DNA of 64,000 nt, taken from positions 32,001 to 96,000 of IMG/VR virus record IMGVR_UViG_3300031257_000001; one strand, given 5' to 3'. The notes beneath the pieces are model-generated. The model had not been told where the DNA came from. It saw only the letters and a program-made list of their open reading frames with translations, and did not search any database. Position numbers and translations under genes: made by a program. The stretch comes from a virus. Below, piece by piece: positions 1 through 37,325 of this stretch (positions are counted from its first letter, which is position 1; each line of letters starts with the position of its first letter).

Positions 1-324
1 GGGGTGGGATTGTGTGAGCTTGTGTACTCATCAGGCGACGGGCAAGCAGCCCGAGCCGACAACAGTAACATCACCACCGCAAATGTCCTCGGGATGGTGG
101 TGGAAAAGCCATCAACAGTCACGGCCACGGTGGCGTATGTAGGCAAGGTTGACGGGTTCGTTGGGTTGACACCGGGCATTGTGATGTTCCTGGGGACCAA
201 CGGCGCCATCATCCCTGCCTCCGCCGGACTCCCGACGGCGCCCGATTCGGTGATTCATCGGGTTGGAATCTGCGTCTCGCCCACAGAATTCATCTTGGCT
301 CCTGGACTTGCAGTGAGGATGTGA
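1..324 (+). CDS. Partial (5'-truncated) virion structural protein, capsid cement/fibre (DUF2190-like) C-terminal domain
   Basis: Frame is open from base 1. Gly/Ala/Val-rich beta domain (VLGMV...GLTPG..FL....G...HRVG.CVS.TEFI) resembles the C-terminus of the 667-2139 protein. Confidence 0.5.
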   Translation, partial: GVGLCELVYSSGDGQAARADNSNITTANVLGMVVEKPSTVTATVAYVGKVDGFVGLTPGIVMFLGTNGAIIPASAGLPTAPDSVIHRVGICVSPTEFILAPGLAVRM

Positions 325-650
325 TGGAGAAACACTACCAACTCACCAAGTACGCGCTGCCATTCGAGCGTGATGGCAAGTTCCAGTTCCGCGTGCGCTT
401 CCATCAAGAGACCGAGGGTGGCGGGCTGCGTGTCAGAGCGCTCAAAGCCTGCCCACTCATCACTGCGCCCTCCGGCGGCGTGGTGTCCACTACAAATCTG
501 ACCGCTCAGCGAATGATCGAGGCGTTCCACGCGCCCAACAACACTCACCGTAACGGCGAGCGCCGGGTGCGCAAGCCGCTGTTCAAGGACGTGACAGCCG
601 CCAACGCCACCGTGGATGTGGACCTGGATGAGGTGTTCGGCACAGCCTAG
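321..650 (+). CDS. Hypothetical phage protein
   Basis: Coupled start overlapping the upstream stop, typical codon usage, followed by the GGAGA RBS of the next gene. Confidence 0.6.
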   Translation: MMEKHYQLTKYALPFERDGKFQFRVRFHQETEGGGLRVRALKACPLITAPSGGVVSTTNLTAQRMIEAFHAPNNTHRNGERRVRKPLFKDVTAANATVDVDLDEVFGTA

Positions 651-666
651 CCTCTGGAGATGCCAA

Positions 667-2139
667 ATGACAGTCGCTCTGAAGATTGACACCACTACTG
701 GTCAGCTGCGCCAGTTTGCCGAGGCAGATGTCTTGGGGATTGATGCCATTGAGCGTCGCTCTGGAAGCGGCAACTTGCTCGTTGGCGGAAACCTTGGTGT
801 CGGTGAGGAATTGGTTCTGGGTTCCACCACAGCCCTAACCCGTATCCTGGGTGACCTGGAAGTGGACGGCTCCGAGACGGTCTCCACCTCTGAAACGGTG
901 GTCGGCCAGTTCACAGCACAGGGCAACGTCCAGTTGGGTGTTGGGGATGATGGCGATCAGATCAACCTCGGATCTGGCACCAATGATGTCGTGACGTTGA
1001 ATGCCGACCTGCGTTTAGGATCGCCTGCAGGTGCGTTGCAAATTGGCACCGGCGTCGGTGAATATCTGGGCAAGTTGTGGTTGGAGAAGATTGGCGACCT
1101 CGGTCCGAATAATGACGCATACAATCTGAATACCAGCGGCGTGGATGCTGGTTCCTATGCCATCGGCGTGGATCCTGCACGTGTGACCAACTCAACAGCG
1201 GCAAATCTGATGGATATGCTTGCTGATCTCGATGGCGCTATCGCCGCTGGGAGTCCGAACCTTCAATCAGCATACACCGCAGGCAACACCATCAATGCGA
1301 CGGCCGCTGATGGCGAGATCCAGTTTGTCAATAGTGCCGATGCGACTGATACGTTGCAAATTCTGCGTGCACCTGTATCGGGGACTGGTGGACGTGGCTT
1401 GTACATTTCGATGGGATCAAGTTGCACCGGTCGCGGACTACAAGTGACCAATGAAGGTTCCGGCGATGCCTTTGCGGTGTTTGATGGTGCTGTTCAAGTA
1501 TTCACAATTGGTGGGAACGGATCCCTGACAGCCAACATGGCGGCGGCAAGCCAGTTGAAAACAACTGTTGGGAATCTGCTGCTTAGTTCAGACGCGGCCG
1601 AACTGCAGCTCAATGACGTGGGCGGTTCGAACATCGAGCTCAGCCAATCTGCCGACAGGACGCTGGATGAGACGGGCGTGGGCGAGGTGTTGGAAGGCGC
1701 CACATCTCTCATCGGCGCAATCAACCGTCTGGCACGGTCAAGCACCGCCGGCGCGGGCAGCATCGATGAAGCCCCGATTCAGGACGGAGTTACCATTGCT
1801 GCCGGAGATGTGGTTTCCCAGTCCACTGTCAGCGGCCGGGTTACCTCAACCACGATGAACAACAACACCAACTCGCGGGTGGTTGGCATCGCGTTGACCG
1901 GCGGGACCGGTGACGCAGGCGGGACCGTGACTAGTCGGTTCGCCCTCCCCGGGACCAAGGTCACCATCTCCGGAGCGGCCTACACGGCCGGTGCGGCGTT
2001 GTTCGCGCCCGAGACTCCCGGCGTACCTGTGGGATCCGGTGCTGCTCCGAGTGATCCTGGCGATGTGCTACAGCGTATCGGATGGGCGCGAAGCCCCACC
2101 GATTTCATCATTGATCTGGGTCTACAAGTCATCCTCTGA
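667..2139 (+). CDS. Putative head fibre/decoration protein
   Basis: ATG at 667 after GGAGA. Gly/Thr/Asp-rich, with an LQSAY..G motif and a C-terminal cement-like domain. N-terminus is paralogous to the 2865 ORF. Confidence 0.55.
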   Translation: MTVALKIDTTTGQLRQFAEADVLGIDAIERRSGSGNLLVGGNLGVGEELVLGSTTALTRILGDLEVDGSETVSTSETVVGQFTAQGNVQLGVGDDGDQINLGSGTNDVVTLNADLRLGSPAGALQIGTGVGEYLGKLWLEKIGDLGPNNDAYNLNTSGVDAGSYAIGVDPARVTNSTAANLMDMLADLDGAIAAGSPNLQSAYTAGNTINATAADGEIQFVNSADATDTLQILRAPVSGTGGRGLYISMGSSCTGRGLQVTNEGSGDAFAVFDGAVQVFTIGGNGSLTANMAAASQLKTTVGNLLLSSDAAELQLNDVGGSNIELSQSADRTLDETGVGEVLEGATSLIGAINRLARSSTAGAGSIDEAPIQDGVTIAAGDVVSQSTVSGRVTSTTMNNNTNSRVVGIALTGGTGDAGGTVTSRFALPGTKVTISGAAYTAGAALFAPETPGVPVGSGAAPSDPGDVLQRIGWARSPTDFIIDLGLQVIL

Positions 2140-2144
2140 GGAAC

Positions 2145-2861
2145 ATGGCAACCAAGAAGCGAACCAAGCGGGCTATCCGCCCGTCCAAGAAGGACGCACC
2201 CGTTGGCGAGGATCATCAGCCTGGTGGGGACGCATCCGCTGCCAACCCTACTTCCAAACAGCCGCAAGCTGTGGCATCGCCAGCAAGGAAGCCAGACCCT
2301 CACGCATCCGAGCGTGAGGCGGCTCGCAAGGCTCGCAAGGAAGCCAAGGAGAATCCCCTGCCAACCAAACCCGAGACTCCGAAGTCAAAGGTGACTGGAA
2401 GGCCGGTGACTCCCAAGGCGGTGTCCGTGGTGACGGACGATCTTCCACCACCGCCGGCGGACCTCGATGCGGCACGCCGGCGCAAATCCGTGGCGGCTGC
2501 GGTGGCCAACCAGGATCCCATAGTATTGGTTCTGGACGAGCGTCTGCGCTACAAGATGGAGGCTATGGATCGGCGTCACAACGAGGCCGTAGACCGCGTC
2601 AAGCAACCCATCCTCCAACTGTTCGCAGATAGGATCAAGACGACAATCCAGAAGGCTGTTGATTCTGACCAGGCGTGCCGTGAATCGCGCCGGGCGCAAA
2701 TCGAATGTGTCAATGAGATCATCGACGCACTGGCCGGTGAGCTCCCCAAGGGGTACGCCATCACTCTCATCGAGGGTGAGAATGGGCAAGCTCGTGCTGA
2801 GTTTGCGCCCGACCAAGTGGGCAAGAAACTGCCGGTGCCCGAGCCACTGGCCAAGGAGTAA
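2145..2861 (+). CDS. Hypothetical protein (Lys/Pro-rich disordered N-terminus, helical C-terminus)
   Basis: GAGGA RBS, in operon. Confidence 0.65.
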   Translation: MATKKRTKRAIRPSKKDAPVGEDHQPGGDASAANPTSKQPQAVASPARKPDPHASEREAARKARKEAKENPLPTKPETPKSKVTGRPVTPKAVSVVTDDLPPPPADLDAARRRKSVAAAVANQDPIVLVLDERLRYKMEAMDRRHNEAVDRVKQPILQLFADRIKTTIQKAVDSDQACRESRRAQIECVNEIIDALAGELPKGYAITLIEGENGQARAEFAPDQVGKKLPVPEPLAKE

Positions 2862-2864
2862 GGC

Positions 2865-3899
2865 ATGGCAGTCGCGCTGAGGAATGGCGCGAGCGGCGCA
2901 CTGGAGCAGTTCAAGTCTGGTGAATCATTACAGATTGACCAACTTGAACGGCTAGCTGGTTCCGGACATCTGGTCATTGGTTCCGCACTTGGTGCAACCG
3001 ATGAACTACAGTTGGGGTCGGTCGCTTCGGTGGTGCGTATCCTTGGCGACTTTGATGTTGACGGCGCTATGGCTGGCGACCTCGACATGAACGGGAACGA
3101 CATCCTGAACGCGGGAAATTTGGTGACCATGGTGTTCGGCCGGGTCGGGAGCGTTTCTGCTGCCGCCAGCGACTATGATGCCAGCCAAGTTGACAACGAT
3201 TCCAGCGTGCCCGGGACATACGTGGACAATGCGTTGGATACTCTTTTGTCTGCAGTTAGCGCATGCGCCCCGGAATCTAGGAGCCTGACAGCCGGAGCAG
3301 GCCTAACGGGTGGTGGCAATCTCAGTGCTGATCGGACGTTCGATGTGGTCGCCAACGCGGATGGATCTGTGGTCGTCAACGCGGATGACATCCAGGTTGG
3401 TGTGTTGGCTTCGGACGTTCAACACGGGGCTAGGGGCGGAGGCATCCAACATGCGGTGGTAAGTGGTTCTGCTGCTGGATTTGCACCCACCGTGAGTTCC
3501 ATTGCCGGTGCTTTGGCGTATTCCACTAGCAGCGCCCAGGCATATGCAGCAGTGTTGAGGGCCATATTGTCGCCCGCAGCGTTGGAGATTGGTGCTTCAG
3601 GAGCTGTGGCGACCAGCGGAGCTTTGCGCTTTGCCAAAGACAATTCGCTATTAGCAGCACTCAATGAAGCTGAAGATGGTATCGTCAAGATGATCGAAAA
3701 GGATCCATCAAGCGATGCCGTCAACATTGGGCCTGGCGCATCTGATATCGTCCGGATAGGCGACGTGTACATTGAAGTGCTGGAAGCGTCGGGCCATCCA
3801 GCAGCACCAACAGACGATGCCATCAGGTTGTACACACTGTCATCTGGAACAGAGTTTTGGGCTGTGAAAAAAGGCGGGGATAGAGTTCAATTGGTTTGA
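2865..3899 (+). CDS. Putative head/tail fibre protein
   Basis: AAGGAG RBS. Fibre-like motifs (GDLDMNGNDI, VFGRVGSV, TAGAGLTGGGNLSADRT). Confidence 0.55.
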   Translation: MAVALRNGASGALEQFKSGESLQIDQLERLAGSGHLVIGSALGATDELQLGSVASVVRILGDFDVDGAMAGDLDMNGNDILNAGNLVTMVFGRVGSVSAAASDYDASQVDNDSSVPGTYVDNALDTLLSAVSACAPESRSLTAGAGLTGGGNLSADRTFDVVANADGSVVVNADDIQVGVLASDVQHGARGGGIQHAVVSGSAAGFAPTVSSIAGALAYSTSSAQAYAAVLRAILSPAALEIGASGAVATSGALRFAKDNSLLAALNEAEDGIVKMIEKDPSSDAVNIGPGASDIVRIGDVYIEVLEASGHPAAPTDDAIRLYTLSSGTEFWAVKKGGDRVQLV

Positions 3900-31172: not shown

Positions 31173-31319
31173 ATGTGGCCCGATCGCCGCCCAGTCTACC
31201 TCGAATGCCAACCACCATTGTGGGACCGCGTTGCGGTGCGTGCCGGGTGCTGGGTTTGGGCAGGAATGTTAGCGTTGGCTGCAGCTGTGGTGCTGATGAG
31301 TGTCGCGTTTCTGCGGTAA
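31173..31319 (+). CDS. Small single-TM protein (not in ORF track; alternative GTG start at 31146)
   Basis: MWPDRRPV...CWVWAGMLALAAAVVLMSVAFLR*. Fills the gap, and its stop overlaps the AAGGAG RBS of the next gene. Confidence 0.5.
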   Translation: MWPDRRPVYLECQPPLWDRVAVRAGCWVWAGMLALAAAVVLMSVAFLR

Positions 31320-31329
31320 GGAGTGGCGT

Positions 31330-32103
31330 GTGACAGAAATCAAATGTTGTGGGTGTCTGCCTGATCCAATCGACCACAGACACCACGCTGATTTTGAGAG
31401 ACTTGGGCTTACGGCGGGCACAGAGCAGTGGCCGTCGCTTCGTGCATTTTGCGGCGAGGTACTCAACCAGCAGAGCACCAGCTCGTGCGTGCCGCATGCG
31501 ATTCTGGACGCCGAGCGGACCACGCTCCGTGCGCGCCACCTGATTGATGCGCCGCTCGGGTCGATTCTGCAGCTGTACTACGGTGCGCGCTTTCGAAGCG
31601 GCCTGCATGGCAGCGATGACGGTTGCTACCCGAGCGTGGCCATTTTTGAGCTGGAAGCCAACGGGATTGCGCCGGCATTCCAATGGCCATTCGCACCAAT
31701 GCATGTGCAGAAGCGCCCGCCAATTGCCGCGACTCGTGATGCCTATGAACGTCGGGGCATGCGCGACACCTATGCAATACACGAATCGACGGTGGATGGT
31801 CGAATCGCCGCAATGCGTGCGGCACTCAACGCTAAGCGCGCCGGCACAATGCAGATACCGGTTGACCGCGCGATGATGTTCTCCAACGGTGTCACGTTGA
31901 TAGAGTATGCCAAGCTTGGAGCAATAGAAGGCTATCACCTTGTCGAATTCGTTGCGCTTGCCGATGACGGTGGGCCATGTGTCGAAATCAAAAACAGCTG
32001 GGGCAGCGGTTGGCGAGATGGTGGCTATGCCTACCTGGATCGCGGTTTCATCGACAACACACAATCGCTCTACATCATAGACCCGAAGGACCCACCGCGA
32101 TGA
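31330..32103 (+). CDS. Papain-like (C1) cysteine peptidase
   Basis: NQQSTSSCV (oxyanion Gln, catalytic Cys), GYHLV (His), KNSWGSGWRDGGYAYL (Asn). Confidence 0.9.
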   Translation: MTEIKCCGCLPDPIDHRHHADFERLGLTAGTEQWPSLRAFCGEVLNQQSTSSCVPHAILDAERTTLRARHLIDAPLGSILQLYYGARFRSGLHGSDDGCYPSVAIFELEANGIAPAFQWPFAPMHVQKRPPIAATRDAYERRGMRDTYAIHESTVDGRIAAMRAALNAKRAGTMQIPVDRAMMFSNGVTLIEYAKLGAIEGYHLVEFVALADDGGPCVEIKNSWGSGWRDGGYAYLDRGFIDNTQSLYIIDPKDPPR

Positions 32104-32426: not shown

Positions 32427-34958
32427 GTGATCAAGCTACGCTTGGACAACCGCTGGGTCTACATCACCGGCGCTCCGCGCTCCGTCATCCGCGAGTTGGA
32501 GTCCATCACGAGCTATCGTGTGGCGGGCTTCATGTTCGCGCCGTCCTTCAAGAGAGGGCACTGGGACGGCAAGGAGCACCTGCTGCGCTTCAGCAGCAAG
32601 CGCGGATACCACGCGCCCCGAGGACTCGTCACCGACATCGCCCGGGCTCTTCGGGCTGAGGGGCATCGGTACACGGTCGAGCATGTCCACGCTCCGCTGC
32701 CGGAGCGGCGCAAGCTGGTGTGGGAGTCCAGCGTGGTGATGCGAGGATACCAGGATGAGGCGATCAACGCCCTGCTGGCACCTCCTGTGCGCGGCAGTGG
32801 GGTGTTGAAGATGCCCATCAGGAGCGGCAAGACCAAGATGGCCGCCCGGCTCATCCGCAGGATCGGCCAGGCCACACTGTTCGTGGTCCCGTCCAAGTCA
32901 CTCCTGTACCAGACCCGGGAAGCCCTCGCTGAGTGCTTCCCGTTGGAGACCATCGGCCTCATCGGCGACTCCGAGCACGATGAGCAGTTCATCACAGTCG
33001 CCTCCATCCAGACATTGGCGATGTGGCGCGAGGGCGGCCGCTGGAAGATGATGCGGCCTGCCAAGAAGCAGGAAAGCCGCGTTGCGTGGCTGGAGGAGCA
33101 CGGCTGGGAGCCGTCGGGCGAGCTGTGGCGCAAAGGTCGCATCAAGCCCGTGGCGATCGTCAAGGCCATCGAGCGTGAGGCGAGCGACCGCGAGGCAGAG
33201 CGGAAGGCCACTGTCAAGGCCAAGTACAAGGGTCTGCTCAAGGCGTTCCCTCTGCTCATCCTCGATGAATGCTTTATTGCAGGAACGTTAGTTGACGGGA
33301 GACCTATCGAGAGCATTGCTGTCGGTGACATGGTTGCTGCATTCGACAACAACGGCACCACATCCCAACGACGAGTAACCCGGACATTCAAAACGGTTCC
33401 ATCCAGCCTTGTTCGCATCCGATTCAACGACGGAAGGACCCTGACTTGCACGCCAGGGCATCCCTTCTTCACCGCTTGCGGTTGGGTGAAGGCTTGCGAG
33501 CTGAGGCCTGGATCGGATATGGTGTTAAGCACCAATGCTAAAGTGCACGACCTGCGGACGGGAATTGGACTCGGAGAACGTTCCTGCTCATCGTTTGGAA
33601 CGATGGAAGAAAACCGGAAGAATCTACTGCAAGACAGCTTGCGGCCGTGCATACACCGGGAAGGTGACCCGAAACTCACCCCACCTACGCTCCCAGGAGG
33701 TGCGGGAGGCTTCATCGAGGCGAATGAAGGAGAGCAACCCGATGCGCTCGGAGCATGTGCGTGCCAAAATGGCAGCTTCGCTGCGTGCTCGTGGCCATTC
33801 TCCCAATTGGACCAAGGGCGGGAACGGACGGCCACTACCAATTGCACAAGTGGTCCTTGCAGCTGCTTTGGGATGGGAGACAGAATGCGTTGTGAAGACG
33901 GGGAATCCGTCACGTGGAGTGGATCGAATGGTCGGGATTTCGTCTTGTTACAAGCTGGATGTTGCCAACTCGACGCTGAAGCTCGGAATCGAGCTAGACG
34001 GCCCCTCGCACCACACTCCGAAAGCACGTGTGTTGGACAAAAAGAAAACCGACTTTCTGAGTGGGATGGGGTGGACGGTGTTGAGGTTCTCCAACCGGGA
34101 AGTGACAAACGATTTGGAGGGTTGTGTCCGGACGGTTTTGTGTACAATCTCGAAGTTGAAGGACTCCACACGTACATAGCCAACGGCTTGGCCGTCCACA
34201 ACTGTCACCACTACCGGGGGACCGGCGAGTGGTACAAGGTCCCGCATGAGTTCGACAGCAGGTTCAAGGTCGGCCTGTCGGCCACCGCCTATCTGGACAA
34301 CAGCGTCGAGCAGGAACGCGGGATCATCTGGCTGAAGGCGACGTGCGGACCGATCCGCTGCGACATCCCGATGAGCCGTCTCATCGCGGACGGATTCTTG
34401 ATGAAGCAGCACGTCAGGATGTTCCGCGTGACCACCCCCAACCTCAATGGCCGGAAGTGGAGCGCGACGATGCGCCGGCAAGCCATCGTGACCAACCGCC
34501 GGCGCAACGCGATAATCGTCATGTGCGCTGCCAAGTACGCCGCAGAAGGACGCCGCATCGCCATCATCGCCCGGCTCCACGAACACATCGGGATCCTGTG
34601 CGAGGCGATGGATGAGGCCGGGCTGGAGTATCGCACCATCACCGGGCATGACGACCAAGAAGCGCGCGAGGACATCGTTGACGGGTTGGTCAGAGGGGAC
34701 TACCATGTAATCATTGGAACCGTCATCGGCGAGGGCGTGGACATCCCACAAATGGAGGTGGTCATCAATGCGGAAGGCGGCAGGGATACCAAGTCCACTG
34801 TGCAAAGGCAACGCAATCTAACCATCAACAAGGGCAAAAGGCAGGCGGTATTGGTTGACTTTTTGGACGAGACAAACGACCATCTGCGAAAGCACTCCGA
34901 GGCCCGGTTGGAGGTGTACCGCAGCGAGCCAATGTTCCAGATTGACCTGGTGGGCTAG
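32427..34958 (+). CDS. SF2 (DExH, UvsW/XPB-like) helicase, intein-containing
   Basis: MRGYQ, PIRSGKT, DE|CH, GLSATA, GEGVDIP and QRQR motifs. Confidence 0.9.
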   Translation: MIKLRLDNRWVYITGAPRSVIRELESITSYRVAGFMFAPSFKRGHWDGKEHLLRFSSKRGYHAPRGLVTDIARALRAEGHRYTVEHVHAPLPERRKLVWESSVVMRGYQDEAINALLAPPVRGSGVLKMPIRSGKTKMAARLIRRIGQATLFVVPSKSLLYQTREALAECFPLETIGLIGDSEHDEQFITVASIQTLAMWREGGRWKMMRPAKKQESRVAWLEEHGWEPSGELWRKGRIKPVAIVKAIEREASDREAERKATVKAKYKGLLKAFPLLILDECFIAGTLVDGRPIESIAVGDMVAAFDNNGTTSQRRVTRTFKTVPSSLVRIRFNDGRTLTCTPGHPFFTACGWVKACELRPGSDMVLSTNAKVHDLRTGIGLGERSCSSFGTMEENRKNLLQDSLRPCIHREGDPKLTPPTLPGGAGGFIEANEGEQPDALGACACQNGSFAACSWPFSQLDQGRERTATTNCTSGPCSCFGMGDRMRCEDGESVTWSGSNGRDFVLLQAGCCQLDAEARNRARRPLAPHSESTCVGQKENRLSEWDGVDGVEVLQPGSDKRFGGLCPDGFVYNLEVEGLHTYIANGLAVHNCHHYRGTGEWYKVPHEFDSRFKVGLSATAYLDNSVEQERGIIWLKATCGPIRCDIPMSRLIADGFLMKQHVRMFRVTTPNLNGRKWSATMRRQAIVTNRRRNAIIVMCAAKYAAEGRRIAIIARLHEHIGILCEAMDEAGLEYRTITGHDDQEAREDIVDGLVRGDYHVIIGTVIGEGVDIPQMEVVINAEGGRDTKSTVQRQRNLTINKGKRQAVLVDFLDETNDHLRKHSEARLEVYRSEPMFQIDLVG
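33270..34202 (+). mobile_element. Intein (311 aa) in helicase Walker B
   Basis: CFIAGTLV block A, CTPGHPF block B, VYNLEV...AVHN|C. Splicing restores DECH. Confidence 0.93.
33535..34179 (+). CDS. Vsr/DUF559-like endonuclease nested in the +1 frame of the helicase intein
   Basis: CxxC...CxxxC, NUMOD3-like helices, YKLDVA....KLGIELDGPSH.......DKKK..FL...GWTVLRFSN. Confidence 0.85.
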   Translation: MLKCTTCGRELDSENVPAHRLERWKKTGRIYCKTACGRAYTGKVTRNSPHLRSQEVREASSRRMKESNPMRSEHVRAKMAASLRARGHSPNWTKGGNGRPLPIAQVVLAAALGWETECVVKTGNPSRGVDRMVGISSCYKLDVANSTLKLGIELDGPSHHTPKARVLDKKKTDFLSGMGWTVLRFSNREVTNDLEGCVRTVLCTISKLKDSTRT

Positions 34959-35104: not shown

Positions 35105-36661
35105 ATGAAGTCGAAAGCGCACCCACGTGAGTATCAGGGCGACGGCCCGGTTTCAATCCCAACTGCCTACTGCGAGCTGAGCAAGCGCGCGTTCGCGGTC
35201 TGGGTCAGGTTGATGGCTGAGTCTCCCGAGGTTCTGCTGACAGGGAGGCATCGCCTCGCAGAGTTGTTGAGCTACTCACAGCGCCGGTTCAGCGAGGTGC
35301 TTCTGGAGCTTGTGCGCAAGGGGTACGTGGGCGTGATCCCTCCCGAGCGAGTGGGCCTTGTCACCCAAATTGTGTTGCGGCGCCGTGCAAAGATCAACCA
35401 GAGGACGGGGAACTGGTTCAGGCTGGGAAACTTGCTGCTGCAAGGCGACCACGAGTGCATGTGCAATCAACAAGAAACTGGCCCAAAGTTTACACAGACC
35501 CAAAGTTTACACAGACCGAAACCAAAGTTTAGTTGGGCTGATCCAAACTTTAATTGGACCCATGGCATAAAACCGGGAGAAGTGGTGTGTAAAAAGGTAC
35601 CAAGGGAAACCAGTTCTTGTGTAGAGGGTGGATCTTGCAGTCACAAAAGTGGCATTTGTCCAGACAAAAGTGGCAATCTCACAAACTGGGTCCAACTAAA
35701 CTTTGGATTAGTCTGTGTAAACTTTGGAAGTCCCAGAGTCGTTGGGAGTGTGGTTCTTGTGGAGTCCATAGATTATTGGAATACGCAAGGCGTCAAAAAG
35801 CTTCCCGACGGAAACTCTTGCCACATGGCAGCCATGATGCTTTCTGGTGTTAAAAAACGCCGTTTCGTGGCTGGCACGAAAACACAAACAAAACGAACCA
35901 CCTTAGAGGTAGATAGGCTTAGAGAAGCTAAGGAGAAGGAGAAAGAGAAACGTAGGCTCTCTACCCGAGCGAAGCGAGGGTTCTCAAAGCAGCGACGTGG
36001 CAAGGGTGTTGATTGGGCAAAGATAGACCTGATGGGGGACCCTGTCGTGAGCTTCGAGCCCGGCGACCGCGAGCGCCCTCGTGTTCTTGAGGTTCTGTCC
36101 CGGAGGGCTCGCGACCCGGAGCGAGTCAGGCTCGTGGCAAAGCTGGAACGCGAGTTCTGCCGCATCTACACCCGGTACAGGCGACAGGCGGAGCGCGACC
36201 TCACCGGCTCGACTGATTACAATGAGGTGTGGGAACAGGAACGGAAGTTGGCCGCCCGGGCAGCCATCCTCTGCATCCAGAAGGGAACAACGCCAACCAG
36301 GCTCATCCGCTACTGGCACAAGGCCATCCGCGACTTCACAGACTTGAAGATTCCAACACTGCGCTTCCTGGCCAGCCCGGCGAACGTGGACCGGGCCGCC
36401 TGCGCAGAGATCAATATCGATGACGCCAAGGACAAGCCTCCGGCCGGGAACAGCTTCAGCGCGGTCTGTGGTCTCGATGTACGATTGAGGCCGGAGCTTG
36501 AACGCGCCGGGTTCGACACCAGGCCGTACAACGACCGCTTCATGCTGGGAATCCAACACAATGCGATGGCGATAGCGCAGGGCAAAGACATCTTCATGGC
36601 GAAGGGTCGCGTGAGGGATATGGCGGTGTTCGCAGCGGAGAATCTGTTCAATGAGGAGTGA
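35105..36661 (+). CDS. Putative replication initiator (N-terminal wHTH, internal iterons)
   Basis: LAELLSYS.R.....L.EL..KGYV wHTH; directly upstream of a DnaC-like gene; AT-rich repeat block inside. Confidence 0.6.
   Translation: MKSKAHPREYQGDGPVSIPTAYCELSKRAFAVWVRLMAESPEVLLTGRHRLAELLSYSQRRFSEVLLELVRKGYVGVIPPERVGLVTQIVLRRRAKINQRTGNWFRLGNLLLQGDHECMCNQQETGPKFTQTQSLHRPKPKFSWADPNFNWTHGIKPGEVVCKKVPRETSSCVEGGSCSHKSGICPDKSGNLTNWVQLNFGLVCVNFGSPRVVGSVVLVESIDYWNTQGVKKLPDGNSCHMAAMMLSGVKKRRFVAGTKTQTKRTTLEVDRLREAKEKEKEKRRLSTRAKRGFSKQRRGKGVDWAKIDLMGDPVVSFEPGDRERPRVLEVLSRRARDPERVRLVAKLEREFCRIYTRYRRQAERDLTGSTDYNEVWEQERKLAARAAILCIQKGTTPTRLIRYWHKAIRDFTDLKIPTLRFLASPANVDRAACAEINIDDAKDKPPAGNSFSAVCGLDVRLRPELERAGFDTRPYNDRFMLGIQHNAMAIAQGKDIFMAKGRVRDMAVFAAENLFNEE
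35483..35727. repeat. Iteron-like direct and inverted repeats, putative replication origin
   Basis: CCAAAGTTTACACAGAC at 35483 and 35500, inverted copy at 35711-35727. CCAAAGTTTAGTTGG at 35522, inverted copy at 35692-35706. ACAAAAGTGGCA twice. Confidence 0.75.
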
Positions 36662-37325
36662 GCGTGAGGTCGATGCGTTCCGCGCCGGCCTCATCGAACG
36701 CTTCGGGGATGATGGCGACAAGCGCGTGGCGTACTACACAGCGTGCTACGAGGCTTGTATTCCACGGACGTTCTGGGATGTCGCCGGTGCCGATGTGACC
36801 TACAACATCGATGCGTTCAAGGGGGTCATCCTGCGATACACGTCCAAGTGGAAGCGGGCCCTTCGCCACGGATACTCGATGCTGCTCGTTGGCGACAACG
36901 GCACTGGCAAGACCATGTTCGTGTCGTTCGTCCTCACACAGATGATCAAGCGTGGCGTGACAGTCTACTACATGACGTTGGCCCAGTTGGACATCGACAT
37001 CAAGCGTGGGTTCAAGGACGGCAACGCTGAGGCCCGGCTTGAGCTCCTGCTCGGGGCCGACTTCCTGGCCATCGATGAGATGGGAAAGGAGCATTTCAAG
37101 GCGGACAGCTTCCTGACCACGCGGTTGGAGCTGCTACTCAAGCGCAGGTACGATGACGGCGAGCCCACGGTTCTGGCTTCCAACTTGGGGTGCCAACGGC
37201 TGGTCGAGATGTACGGCCCGACCATCGAGAGTATGCTGGACGGGAAGTATGCCACGTGCCAGTTGGAATCTGGAGACTTCCGCAAGAGCGTCCGCACCCG
37301 GATGAAGAAGGATCTTGGCTTGTGA
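36651..37325 (+). CDS. dnaC: DnaC/IstB-like AAA+ helicase loader
   Basis: GDNGTGKT, DFLAIDEMGKE, RY....PTVLASN and GDFR motifs. Confidence 0.85.
   Translation: MRSEREVDAFRAGLIERFGDDGDKRVAYYTACYEACIPRTFWDVAGADVTYNIDAFKGVILRYTSKWKRALRHGYSMLLVGDNGTGKTMFVSFVLTQMIKRGVTVYYMTLAQLDIDIKRGFKDGNAEARLELLLGADFLAIDEMGKEHFKADSFLTTRLELLLKRRYDDGEPTVLASNLGCQRLVEMYGPTIESMLDGKYATCQLESGDFRKSVRTRMKKDLGL

Follow-up and report, generated by a model that had tools for sequence, protein, structure and literature searches.

The subject of this report is a stretch of 64,000 nucleotides (nt), hereafter the window, which covers positions 32,001 to 96,000 of the IMG/VR virus record IMGVR_UViG_3300031257_000001 and is part of a 104-kb record rated complete; DNA related to it is present in salt-marsh metagenomes. 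Here, we describe a helicase gene of the UvsW-like superfamily 2 (SF2) type which is interrupted by an intein, and a second open reading frame (ORF), shifted by one base (+1) relative to the helicase frame, which lies within the intein and encodes a nuclease. Very probably this is a mobile class-1 intein, inserted at the DE|CH position of helicase motif II (the bar marks the insertion point), with a complete homing-endonuclease gene in the +1 frame, so that two products would be made from one mRNA. The coordinates of all features, counted from the first letter of the window, are collected in Table 1.

The insert has the properties of a class-1 intein at both of its ends. It extends from Cys1 (TGC, 33270-33272), directly after ...LLILDE, to Asn311 (AAC, 34200-34202), and it is followed by Cys-His-His, the first of these residues being Cys+1 (TGT, 34203-34205). 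Since Cys+1 stands directly after Asn311, splicing would restore the DECH form of helicase motif II. When searched alone, the intein scored 42.8 bits against Pfam Intein_splicing (cut-off 35.8) and 38.8 bits against PT-HINT (cut-off 27.7). Cys1 together with TxxH, His-Asn followed by Cys+1, blocks F and G, a profile match above threshold and a HINT fold were all found. Among 50 inteins compared, the only invariant residues are C1, F2, I13, T61, H64, V291, H310 and N311, that is, splicing residues, and the C-terminal lobe has the conserved motifs W.R(L/V)D.VEVL, VYNxEVE and HN. Both exteins match the PHROGs family phrog_16, DNA helicase. The interruption of an essential DECH motif, together with the conserved catalytic residues, suggests that the intein is active in protein splicing.

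Structures of both frames were predicted with AlphaFold2, using alignments of their own homologues. Between the two splicing lobes, residues 91-260 of the helicase frame have no secondary structure in the model, with a predicted local distance difference test score (pLDDT) of 42-55 (about 45). This linker is rich in Gly, Ser, Arg and Cys (21, 14, 14 and 12, respectively, of the 169 residues at 92-260), its columns are almost unconserved among homologous inteins, and it gave no match in Pfam. A remnant of an in-frame endonuclease was considered for this region and rejected, as Pfam shows splicing domains only in the intein frame and the model is structureless here.

The folded central domain was found in the +1 frame. 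The product of this ORF, whose 3′ end lies 23 nt short of the intein end, matches Pfam DUF559 (PF04480) with 47.2 bits (cut-off 20.6, E 2e-12) over residues 138-204, and its model, with a mean pLDDT of 91.8, consists of a zinc ribbon, a helical region and an alpha/beta nuclease domain. The four zinc-ribbon cysteines are invariant in 6 sequences, and the helices which follow (residues 18-85) are predicted at pLDDT 84-97; by analogy with the architecture of I-Bth0305I (PMC3239194), the N-terminal region is presumed to bind DNA. In the catalytic domain D142, D155, G156, H159, D168, G179, W180, R184, F185 and N187 are invariant in 63 endonuclease sequences, and E153 is nearly so. The EDxHD family is defined by the residues E, D, H and D (PMC3239194), and the pattern observed here (E153, D155, H159, D168) agrees with this definition. 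A profile of the 63 homologues matched the DUF559 structure 3HRL at E 1e-10, and in a Foldseek search the nuclease domain found 3hrl with a probability of 1.00 (TM-score on the target 0.73), 3r3p, the catalytic domain of I-Bth0305I, with 0.99 (0.59) and 1vsr, the E. coli Vsr protein, with 0.84. The Pfam Vsr family gave no match to the +1 product at E <= 1, and the relation to Vsr is at the level of fold only; PHROGs contains no family for the endonuclease at E <= 0.001. The enzyme would cleave the element-free DECH allele site-specifically, for which the homing signature in Vibrio phages (see below) gives indirect support.

Much of this had been proposed in an earlier note made from the DNA letters without database searches. 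The ORF listing confirmed its coordinates for the intein and for a 214-amino-acid (aa) +1 ORF with its own ATG, and the structural models bear out its description of a centre that does not look like protein and yet contains no stop. Its Zn-binding Cys cluster and Vsr/DUF559 catalytic domain were likewise recovered, and the profile search of both frames which it had proposed put the splicing domains in the helicase frame and DUF559 in the +1 frame. Its mention of NUMOD3-like helices, by contrast, did not hold up: no Pfam NUMOD family matched the +1 product at E <= 1, and the helical region RMxxxNPM...K(M)S..L...GH resembles NUMOD3 by eye only. The 3′ overlap of the ORF with intein block F was correctly noticed but understated. 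About 124 nt, the last ~40 codons, contribute to structured parts in both proteins: the same nucleotides give the GW..LRF.N strand and the C-terminal helix of the endonuclease and, in the other frame, the intein beta-strand DGVDGVEVL (W.R.D.VEVL) and block F, so that reading one base further on turns YNLEVE of the intein into TISKLK, the endonuclease tail. In this segment constraint extends to all three codon positions (with third-position entropy down to 0.99-1.21), and substitutions occur at about one third of the central rate.

We assessed the selection acting on each frame by counting stops and substitutions. The number of stops expected was obtained by keeping each endonuclease protein and its codon usage while shuffling synonymous codons. 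In the window the helicase frame contains no stop over the +1 ORF, where 7.5 are expected (P(0) = 0.0005), and all 71 distinct viral loci examined are equally free of helicase-frame stops, against 2-17 expected; the third frame, which served as a control, has as many stops as expected. The same effect is visible in single codons. Those standing before a codon that starts with AA, AG or GA never end in T in the window (0/51), whereas 40/162 do elsewhere (Fisher p 6e-6), and in the pooled loci the counts are 0/6861 for the codons at risk and 4122/18867 (22%) for the others. Thus, the helicase frame is kept stop-free by selection through the choice of codons. In the endonuclease, third codon positions are the most variable ones up to about residue 180. 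Close relatives were compared in 11 pairs, among them two that are duplicates of one another; of their 419 central substitutions, 56% leave the endonuclease protein unchanged and 18% the intein protein, and purifying selection therefore acts on the endonuclease frame. The earlier note, which had proposed such frame-specific tests, held that both frames are under selection. This is fully true of the last ~40 codons, to which constraint on both frames is confined; in the ~170 codons of the centre, selection on the intein frame demands no more than openness.

In order to see how widely this layout occurs, we searched with the +1 product by tblastn and then by pattern scans, which yielded 80 IMG/VR loci, 80 metagenome loci and one contig of an Akkermansia metagenome-assembled genome (MAG). 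The tblastn matches are 36-40% identical and lie inside genes whose sole annotation is 'helicase', in Pseudomonas phage MR14, the Vibrio phages CP-T1, 24 and Rostov M3, V. lentus phages from Nahant, and Corynebacterium phage phi673. In MR14, Vibrio phages 1.088.O and CP-T1, and phi673 the host ORF is continuous, the endonuclease ORF lies +1 to it, and stops abound in the third frame. The nested +1 layout was found in every full-length IMG/VR locus and in 80/80 metagenome loci. After removal of duplicates 131 distinct full-length homologues remain, drawn from four GenBank phages, IMG/VR and metagenome contigs, all of them +1, with 33-52% identity to the window copy and GC contents of 29-69%. 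The collection of bacterial and archaeal genomes yielded a full-length match of identical arrangement on the Akkermansia MAG contig (L094) and, besides, one partial match. Seven weak viral matches (L007-L012 and L095) share the DUF559 domain only and were set aside as members of other families.

In nearly all of these inteins the insertion is at DE|CH. In four loci from IMG/VR and metagenomes (L057, L062, L082 and L170) the unit sits 1-2 residues later, after DEAH or DEGHN, in host ORFs that are far larger (up to 2476 aa), and this comparison of sequences suggests that the intein-endonuclease unit has occasionally moved from one helicase family to another at motif II. When longer proteins were searched for in-frame fusions, 4 matches were obtained, which is weak evidence for the rarity of such forms. 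One of them, P0122, is an intein with an in-frame DUF559 nuclease, an arrangement that appears to be rare. In another protein, P0121 (632 aa, from ENA metagenomes), the endonuclease frame continues into ...FLVHN|CHQF... and a helicase C-extein, a fusion of frames that one indel between blocks F and G would explain; a dead allele, an error of assembly and a rare variant all come into question.

Evidence of mobility comes from Vibrio phages whose helicase genes are about 80% identical at the DNA level and which between them span the whole homing cycle, with empty, mini-intein and full alleles at one site. Phage 141E35-1 has the empty site (...LLFQDE|CHHVL...), K459 (L177, OZ196316.1, locus 301-2382) a 149-aa mini-intein at DE|CH without the endonuclease, PS65A.1 (L178, MW824434.1, locus 301-3432) a mini-intein at DE|CH and a second intein in the P-loop, and 1.088.O and 1.027.O have the full element. 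Between the latter two, the DNA of the exteins is 76-78% identical and that of the intein with the endonuclease 95-98%, and the shift is sharp at the borders of the intein; compared with the empty-site phage, 1.027.O has an N-extein of 94% identity. Such a pattern is as expected from a recent transfer of the element between diverged alleles, and it is a signature of homing. The +1 ORF is the sole nuclease in the mobile element. The K459 mini-intein offers a useful comparison both for splicing and for the order of events, whether a mini-intein was invaded or the endonuclease was lost. As a separate observation, the P-loop intein of PS65A.1 is larger (FTGGGK|C...THN|T) and has in-frame LAGLIDADG-like motifs, LGVWLGDGH and LLAGLLDSDGY.

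As to how the endonuclease would be expressed, the +1 frame of the window has a TAA two codons before the ATG, and in other loci the open stretch upstream in this frame is 2 to 85 codons long. In most loci the first CxxC is preceded, at a distance of 2-10 codons, by a start codon (ATG, GTG or TTG), and 6-9 nt ahead of this there is often GAGG, AGGAG or GGAGG. In six loci (L001, L003, L030, L065, L068 and L084) the sequence GACGAGGT, absent from the window copy, precedes the start of the endonuclease by 6-9 nt; read in the intein frame, it gives the conserved Asp-Glu-Val with which the N-terminal splicing lobe closes, and it would double as a GAGG Shine-Dalgarno element. Within the gene we found nothing resembling a promoter, and the RNA around the start is not unusually structured; the endonuclease is therefore most likely translated by internal initiation on the helicase mRNA, and frameshifting is unlikely. 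Among the sequencing runs listed for related DNA none is an RNA run, which has no bearing on expression.

The way in which such an element would work can be outlined as follows. The endonuclease slot of the intein is occupied not by an in-frame domain but by a whole gene whose frame lies one base downstream of that of the helicase. Ribosomes translating the helicase would read through it, producing a precursor in which the HINT lobes are joined by a disordered linker of ~170 residues, which is the endonuclease gene read in the wrong frame. This intein would splice in cis in the manner of a mini-intein with a long loop, and DECH would be restored. Ribosomes starting at the internal ATG at 33535 would make the 214-aa EDxHD/Vsr-like endonuclease, which may cut intein-less helicase alleles during co-infection, whereupon recombinational repair would copy the element in. 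Selection acts on the protein sequence of the endonuclease and, in the helicase frame, only against stops, save in the last ~40 codons, where it acts on both.

Several points weigh against this account. Translation of the +1 ORF is so far an inference. The Shine-Dalgarno-like element of the window is weak (GGTG, 10 nt upstream), no sigma-70-like promoter site was found upstream of the ATG inside the gene, and folding of 33480-33580 gave no significant RNA structure at the start (z -0.28). Splicing across an unstructured insert of 170 residues is, for the window intein, a prediction only, and the Foldseek E-values are modest (~0.01-0.2) despite the high probabilities. The homing signature comes from the Vibrio phage relatives, and the phage of the window has no close relative in the collections except for a separate 1393-nt metagenome contig (L096) with an identical endonuclease. 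We weighed this account against four others.

The weak Shine-Dalgarno-like element and the missing internal promoter would also fit programmed ribosomal frameshifting from the helicase frame, given that the two ORFs share a strand and probably an mRNA. Without internal initiation this would give a fusion of N-extein, N-terminal intein part and endonuclease or, with a second shift, a canonical intein-endonuclease. However, the TAA upstream of the ATG confines the shift in the window to 6 nt, no slippery site is shared among loci, the variable length of the open stretch upstream and the recurrence of a start codon near the first CxxC speak for initiation, and the return shift would need to fall in the conserved dual-coded block; we regard frameshifting as improbable. 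About equally improbable is that the +1 ORF of the window is an inactive relic, recently frameshifted or decaying and unexpressed, while the intein persists by splicing. The homing cycle does predict decay of the endonuclease after fixation, and mini-inteins without an endonuclease exist at the same site. On the other hand, a relic would accumulate stops, whereas the ORF is intact in 131/131 distinct relatives, with a third-position bias. The window copy itself retains all residues invariant in the 63 homologues together with an intact ATG and stop, and a layout that is universal in the family is no recent accident.

The two remaining explanations have, in our judgement, hardly any chance. The window does come from a metagenome assembly, and P0121 looks like the product of a single indel, so that one may ask whether two compensating indels, as errors of sequencing or assembly, displaced an in-frame endonuclease domain; the earlier note had named such indels as a threat to its reading. 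Contigs of four other salt-marsh samples over 33000-34500 show four single-base differences and no insertions or deletions, and the same frame offset is present in isolate phage genomes and in about 130 independent sequences. These results refute the artefact. Moreover, since the nuclease C-terminus and intein block F share nucleotides, no pair of indels could put the nuclease in frame without destroying either its C-terminal helix or block F. It is scarcely more credible that the locus is a fractured gene as described by Dassa et al. (2009), in which the helicase would be made as two polypeptides with a split intein and a free-standing endonuclease between them. The endonuclease superfamily is the same, and a similar 3′ overlap with the C-terminal intein part (6-69 bp) was reported there (PMC2677866), but no helicase-frame stop occurs in the intein of the window or of any relative, where 2-17 would be expected, and only read-through of the frame would account for an openness maintained by selection. 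A mobile intein with a nested, separately initiated endonuclease gene remains the account to which we hold. The earlier idea of a homing endonuclease overprinted on an intein thus stands, upheld by the conserved layout, purifying selection on the endonuclease, avoidance of stops, the lack of indels and mobility in Vibrio phages.

Table 1. Features of the helicase-intein-endonuclease locus in the window (aa, amino acids; ORF, open reading frame)
Feature	Coordinates	Strand	Basis
UvsW-like SF2 (DExH) helicase precursor, 843 aa, single continuous ORF	32427..34958	+	Pfam ResIII, UvsW_N, Helicase_C, Intein_splicing
N-extein, 281 aa, C-terminal ...LLILDE being the first half of helicase motif II	32427..33269	+	
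Class-1 intein, 311 aa: Cys1, block B T61-x-x-H64, block F VYNLEVEGLHTY, block G ...AVHN311	33270..34202	+	
Intein N-terminal splicing lobe, residues 1-90, HINT beta-strands E21-87, pLDDT 86-98	33270..33539	+	AlphaFold2, Pfam PT-HINT/Intein_splicing
Intein-frame read-through linker, residues ~91-260, without stops, poorly conserved, predicted disordered	33540..34049	+	
Intein C-terminal splicing lobe, residues ~261-311, blocks F and G, strands E263-274, E291-296, E301-310, pLDDT 86-98	34050..34202	+	
C-extein, 251 aa, beginning with Cys+1-His, the second half of DECH; bears Helicase_C	34203..34958	+	
Putative homing endonuclease ORF, +1 frame, 214 aa, ATG 33535-33537, TAG 34177-34179	33535..34179	+	ORF, DUF559, AlphaFold2, layout in relatives
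Endonuclease N-terminal region, residues ~1-102: zinc ribbon C4, C7, C32, C36; helices with RMxxxNPM; GGNG loop	33535..33840	+	
Endonuclease catalytic domain, residues ~103-205, DUF559/Vsr-like fold	33841..34149	+	Pfam, profile, Foldseek
Dual-coding segment, ~124 nt: endonuclease residues 175-214 over intein residues 263-303	34056..34179	+	

On the opposite strand of the helicase gene there is a 562-aa ORF (32513-34201), which was rejected as a chance product of high GC, its openness not being conserved; in relatives the longest antisense open stretch over the endonuclease is usually ~40-250 codons. Upstream of the helicase, a 267-aa ORF at 31300-32103 (+) has a weak match to Peptidase_C1, the papain-family cysteine proteases (E 1e-4, 22.9 bits vs a cut-off of 20.7). 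Downstream, a 518-aa ORF at 35105-36661 gave no Pfam match. It contains a dip in GC to 0.44-0.47, compared with ~0.6 nearby, the low-GC part being 35400-35900, and in this dip the sequence CCAAAGTTTA occurs in four direct copies (35483-35552, spacing 17-22 nt) and in two inverted copies (35697-35728, spacing 21 nt). The adjoining gene at 36651-37325 encodes an IstB/DnaC-like ATPase. Judged by sequence, the 518-aa ORF and the next gene look like a lambda-type replication origin, with iterons, within an initiator gene, followed by a helicase loader.

The general kind of arrangement described here is known, as the earlier note had suspected. Inteins whose endonuclease is encoded out of frame or on the opposite strand go back to Gorbalenya (1998), as cited in bioRxiv 10.1101/2025.01.02.630785. 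In that survey of actinophage inteins, Gosselin, Arsenault and Gogarten described antisense LAGLIDADG, antisense VSR-like and frame-3 endonuclease VII-like genes in polymerase, capsid, terminase and thymidylate synthase inteins. According to the same work, VSR-like endonucleases had previously been reported only with split inteins, and its own VSR-like finds are only antisense, none of them in helicases. In a cyanobacterial dnaX intein, a LAGLIDADG gene lies in the +2 frame under frame-specific selection (Phillips, DeSimone and Gogarten, bioRxiv 10.64898/2026.09.14.751524). The window family resembles these non-canonical inteins in being contiguous, with an open but structureless centre and an endonuclease that folds only in the second frame, and its selection pattern is the same as that of the dnaX intein; a nested ORF in another frame, an open intein frame, selection on the second frame and the lack of an in-frame central fold were all found. 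Invasion of a mini-intein by a free-standing endonuclease is proposed for both. In contrast to those cases, the family described here is VSR-like/DUF559, lies on the same strand in +1, sits in an SF2 helicase at DE|CH, occurs in phages of very different hosts and has ~40 dual-coding codons.

Vsr-like endonucleases were first found as free-standing genes between the halves of split inteins in fractured genes, with an overlap of 6-69 bp with the downstream half (Dassa et al. 2009, PMC2677866). The loci share with ours the Vsr-like family, a place in phage DNA-metabolism genes, the position of the endonuclease between the intein halves and the overlap of its 3′ end with the C-terminal intein part. 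They differ in that the host gene stops and restarts and the split intein splices in trans, whereas in the window the frame is continuous and selected to stay open, with splicing predicted to be in cis; a stop and restart of the host frame was found in none of the loci examined. The endonuclease itself is comparable to I-Bth0305I (Taylor et al. 2011, PMC3239194; 3R3P), which also combines an N-terminal DNA-binding region with a C-terminal Vsr-like nuclease with conserved E, D, H and D. However, I-Bth0305I belongs to a group I intron of recA and has NUMOD2/HTH motifs and no zinc ribbon, while the window endonuclease belongs to an intein and has one. The profile-to-sequence similarity between them is weak (E 0.11), and among solved structures the DUF559 protein 3HRL is nearest in sequence. 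Another element, reported in 2025 (PMC11855218), likewise hides an endonuclease in an alternative frame of an insertion that is open in the host frame, with its own start codon a few codons in; it has no splicing domain and stays in the mature protein, whereas the insert in the window is flanked by HINT splicing lobes. Our literature search, which did not cover subscription journals, found no report of a same-strand Vsr-like helicase intein family. Thus, the same-strand +1 Vsr-like helicase family appears to be newly recognised; it is very large and well supported, and it is not a new kind of arrangement.

With 131 distinct sequences over GC contents of 29-69%, the family provides a large natural data set for a gene overlaid on a frame that is merely kept open, and it also shows two structured proteins sharing about 120 nt. 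The intein, if the prediction holds, shows that splicing can take place naturally over a long disordered insert. The annotation of CP-T1, MR14, phi673 and the Nahant Vibrio phages lacks the nuclease gene, for which PHROGs has no family either; inteins should be searched routinely for nested genes on the same strand. As there are cultivable carriers and natural relatives with empty sites or mini-inteins, translation, splicing and homing are directly testable, and endonucleases that target a conserved helicase motif could supply new site-specific nucleases.

Beyond the window, we tentatively put forward a wider reading, in which our confidence falls slightly short of even. The family may be an old and stable unit that is widespread in phages and exists essentially only in the overlapped +1 form, with its endonuclease made by internal initiation on the helicase mRNA and, in several lineages, with a Shine-Dalgarno element taken from the intein's own Asp-Glu-Val codons. 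The last ~40 codons, shared by both genes, would tie them together, and the unit would represent a living intermediate between mini-inteins, fractured genes of the Dassa type and canonical inteins. More generally, the finding supports the model in which intein endonucleases arrive as free-standing genes that invade mini-inteins, and it links this model to fractured genes.

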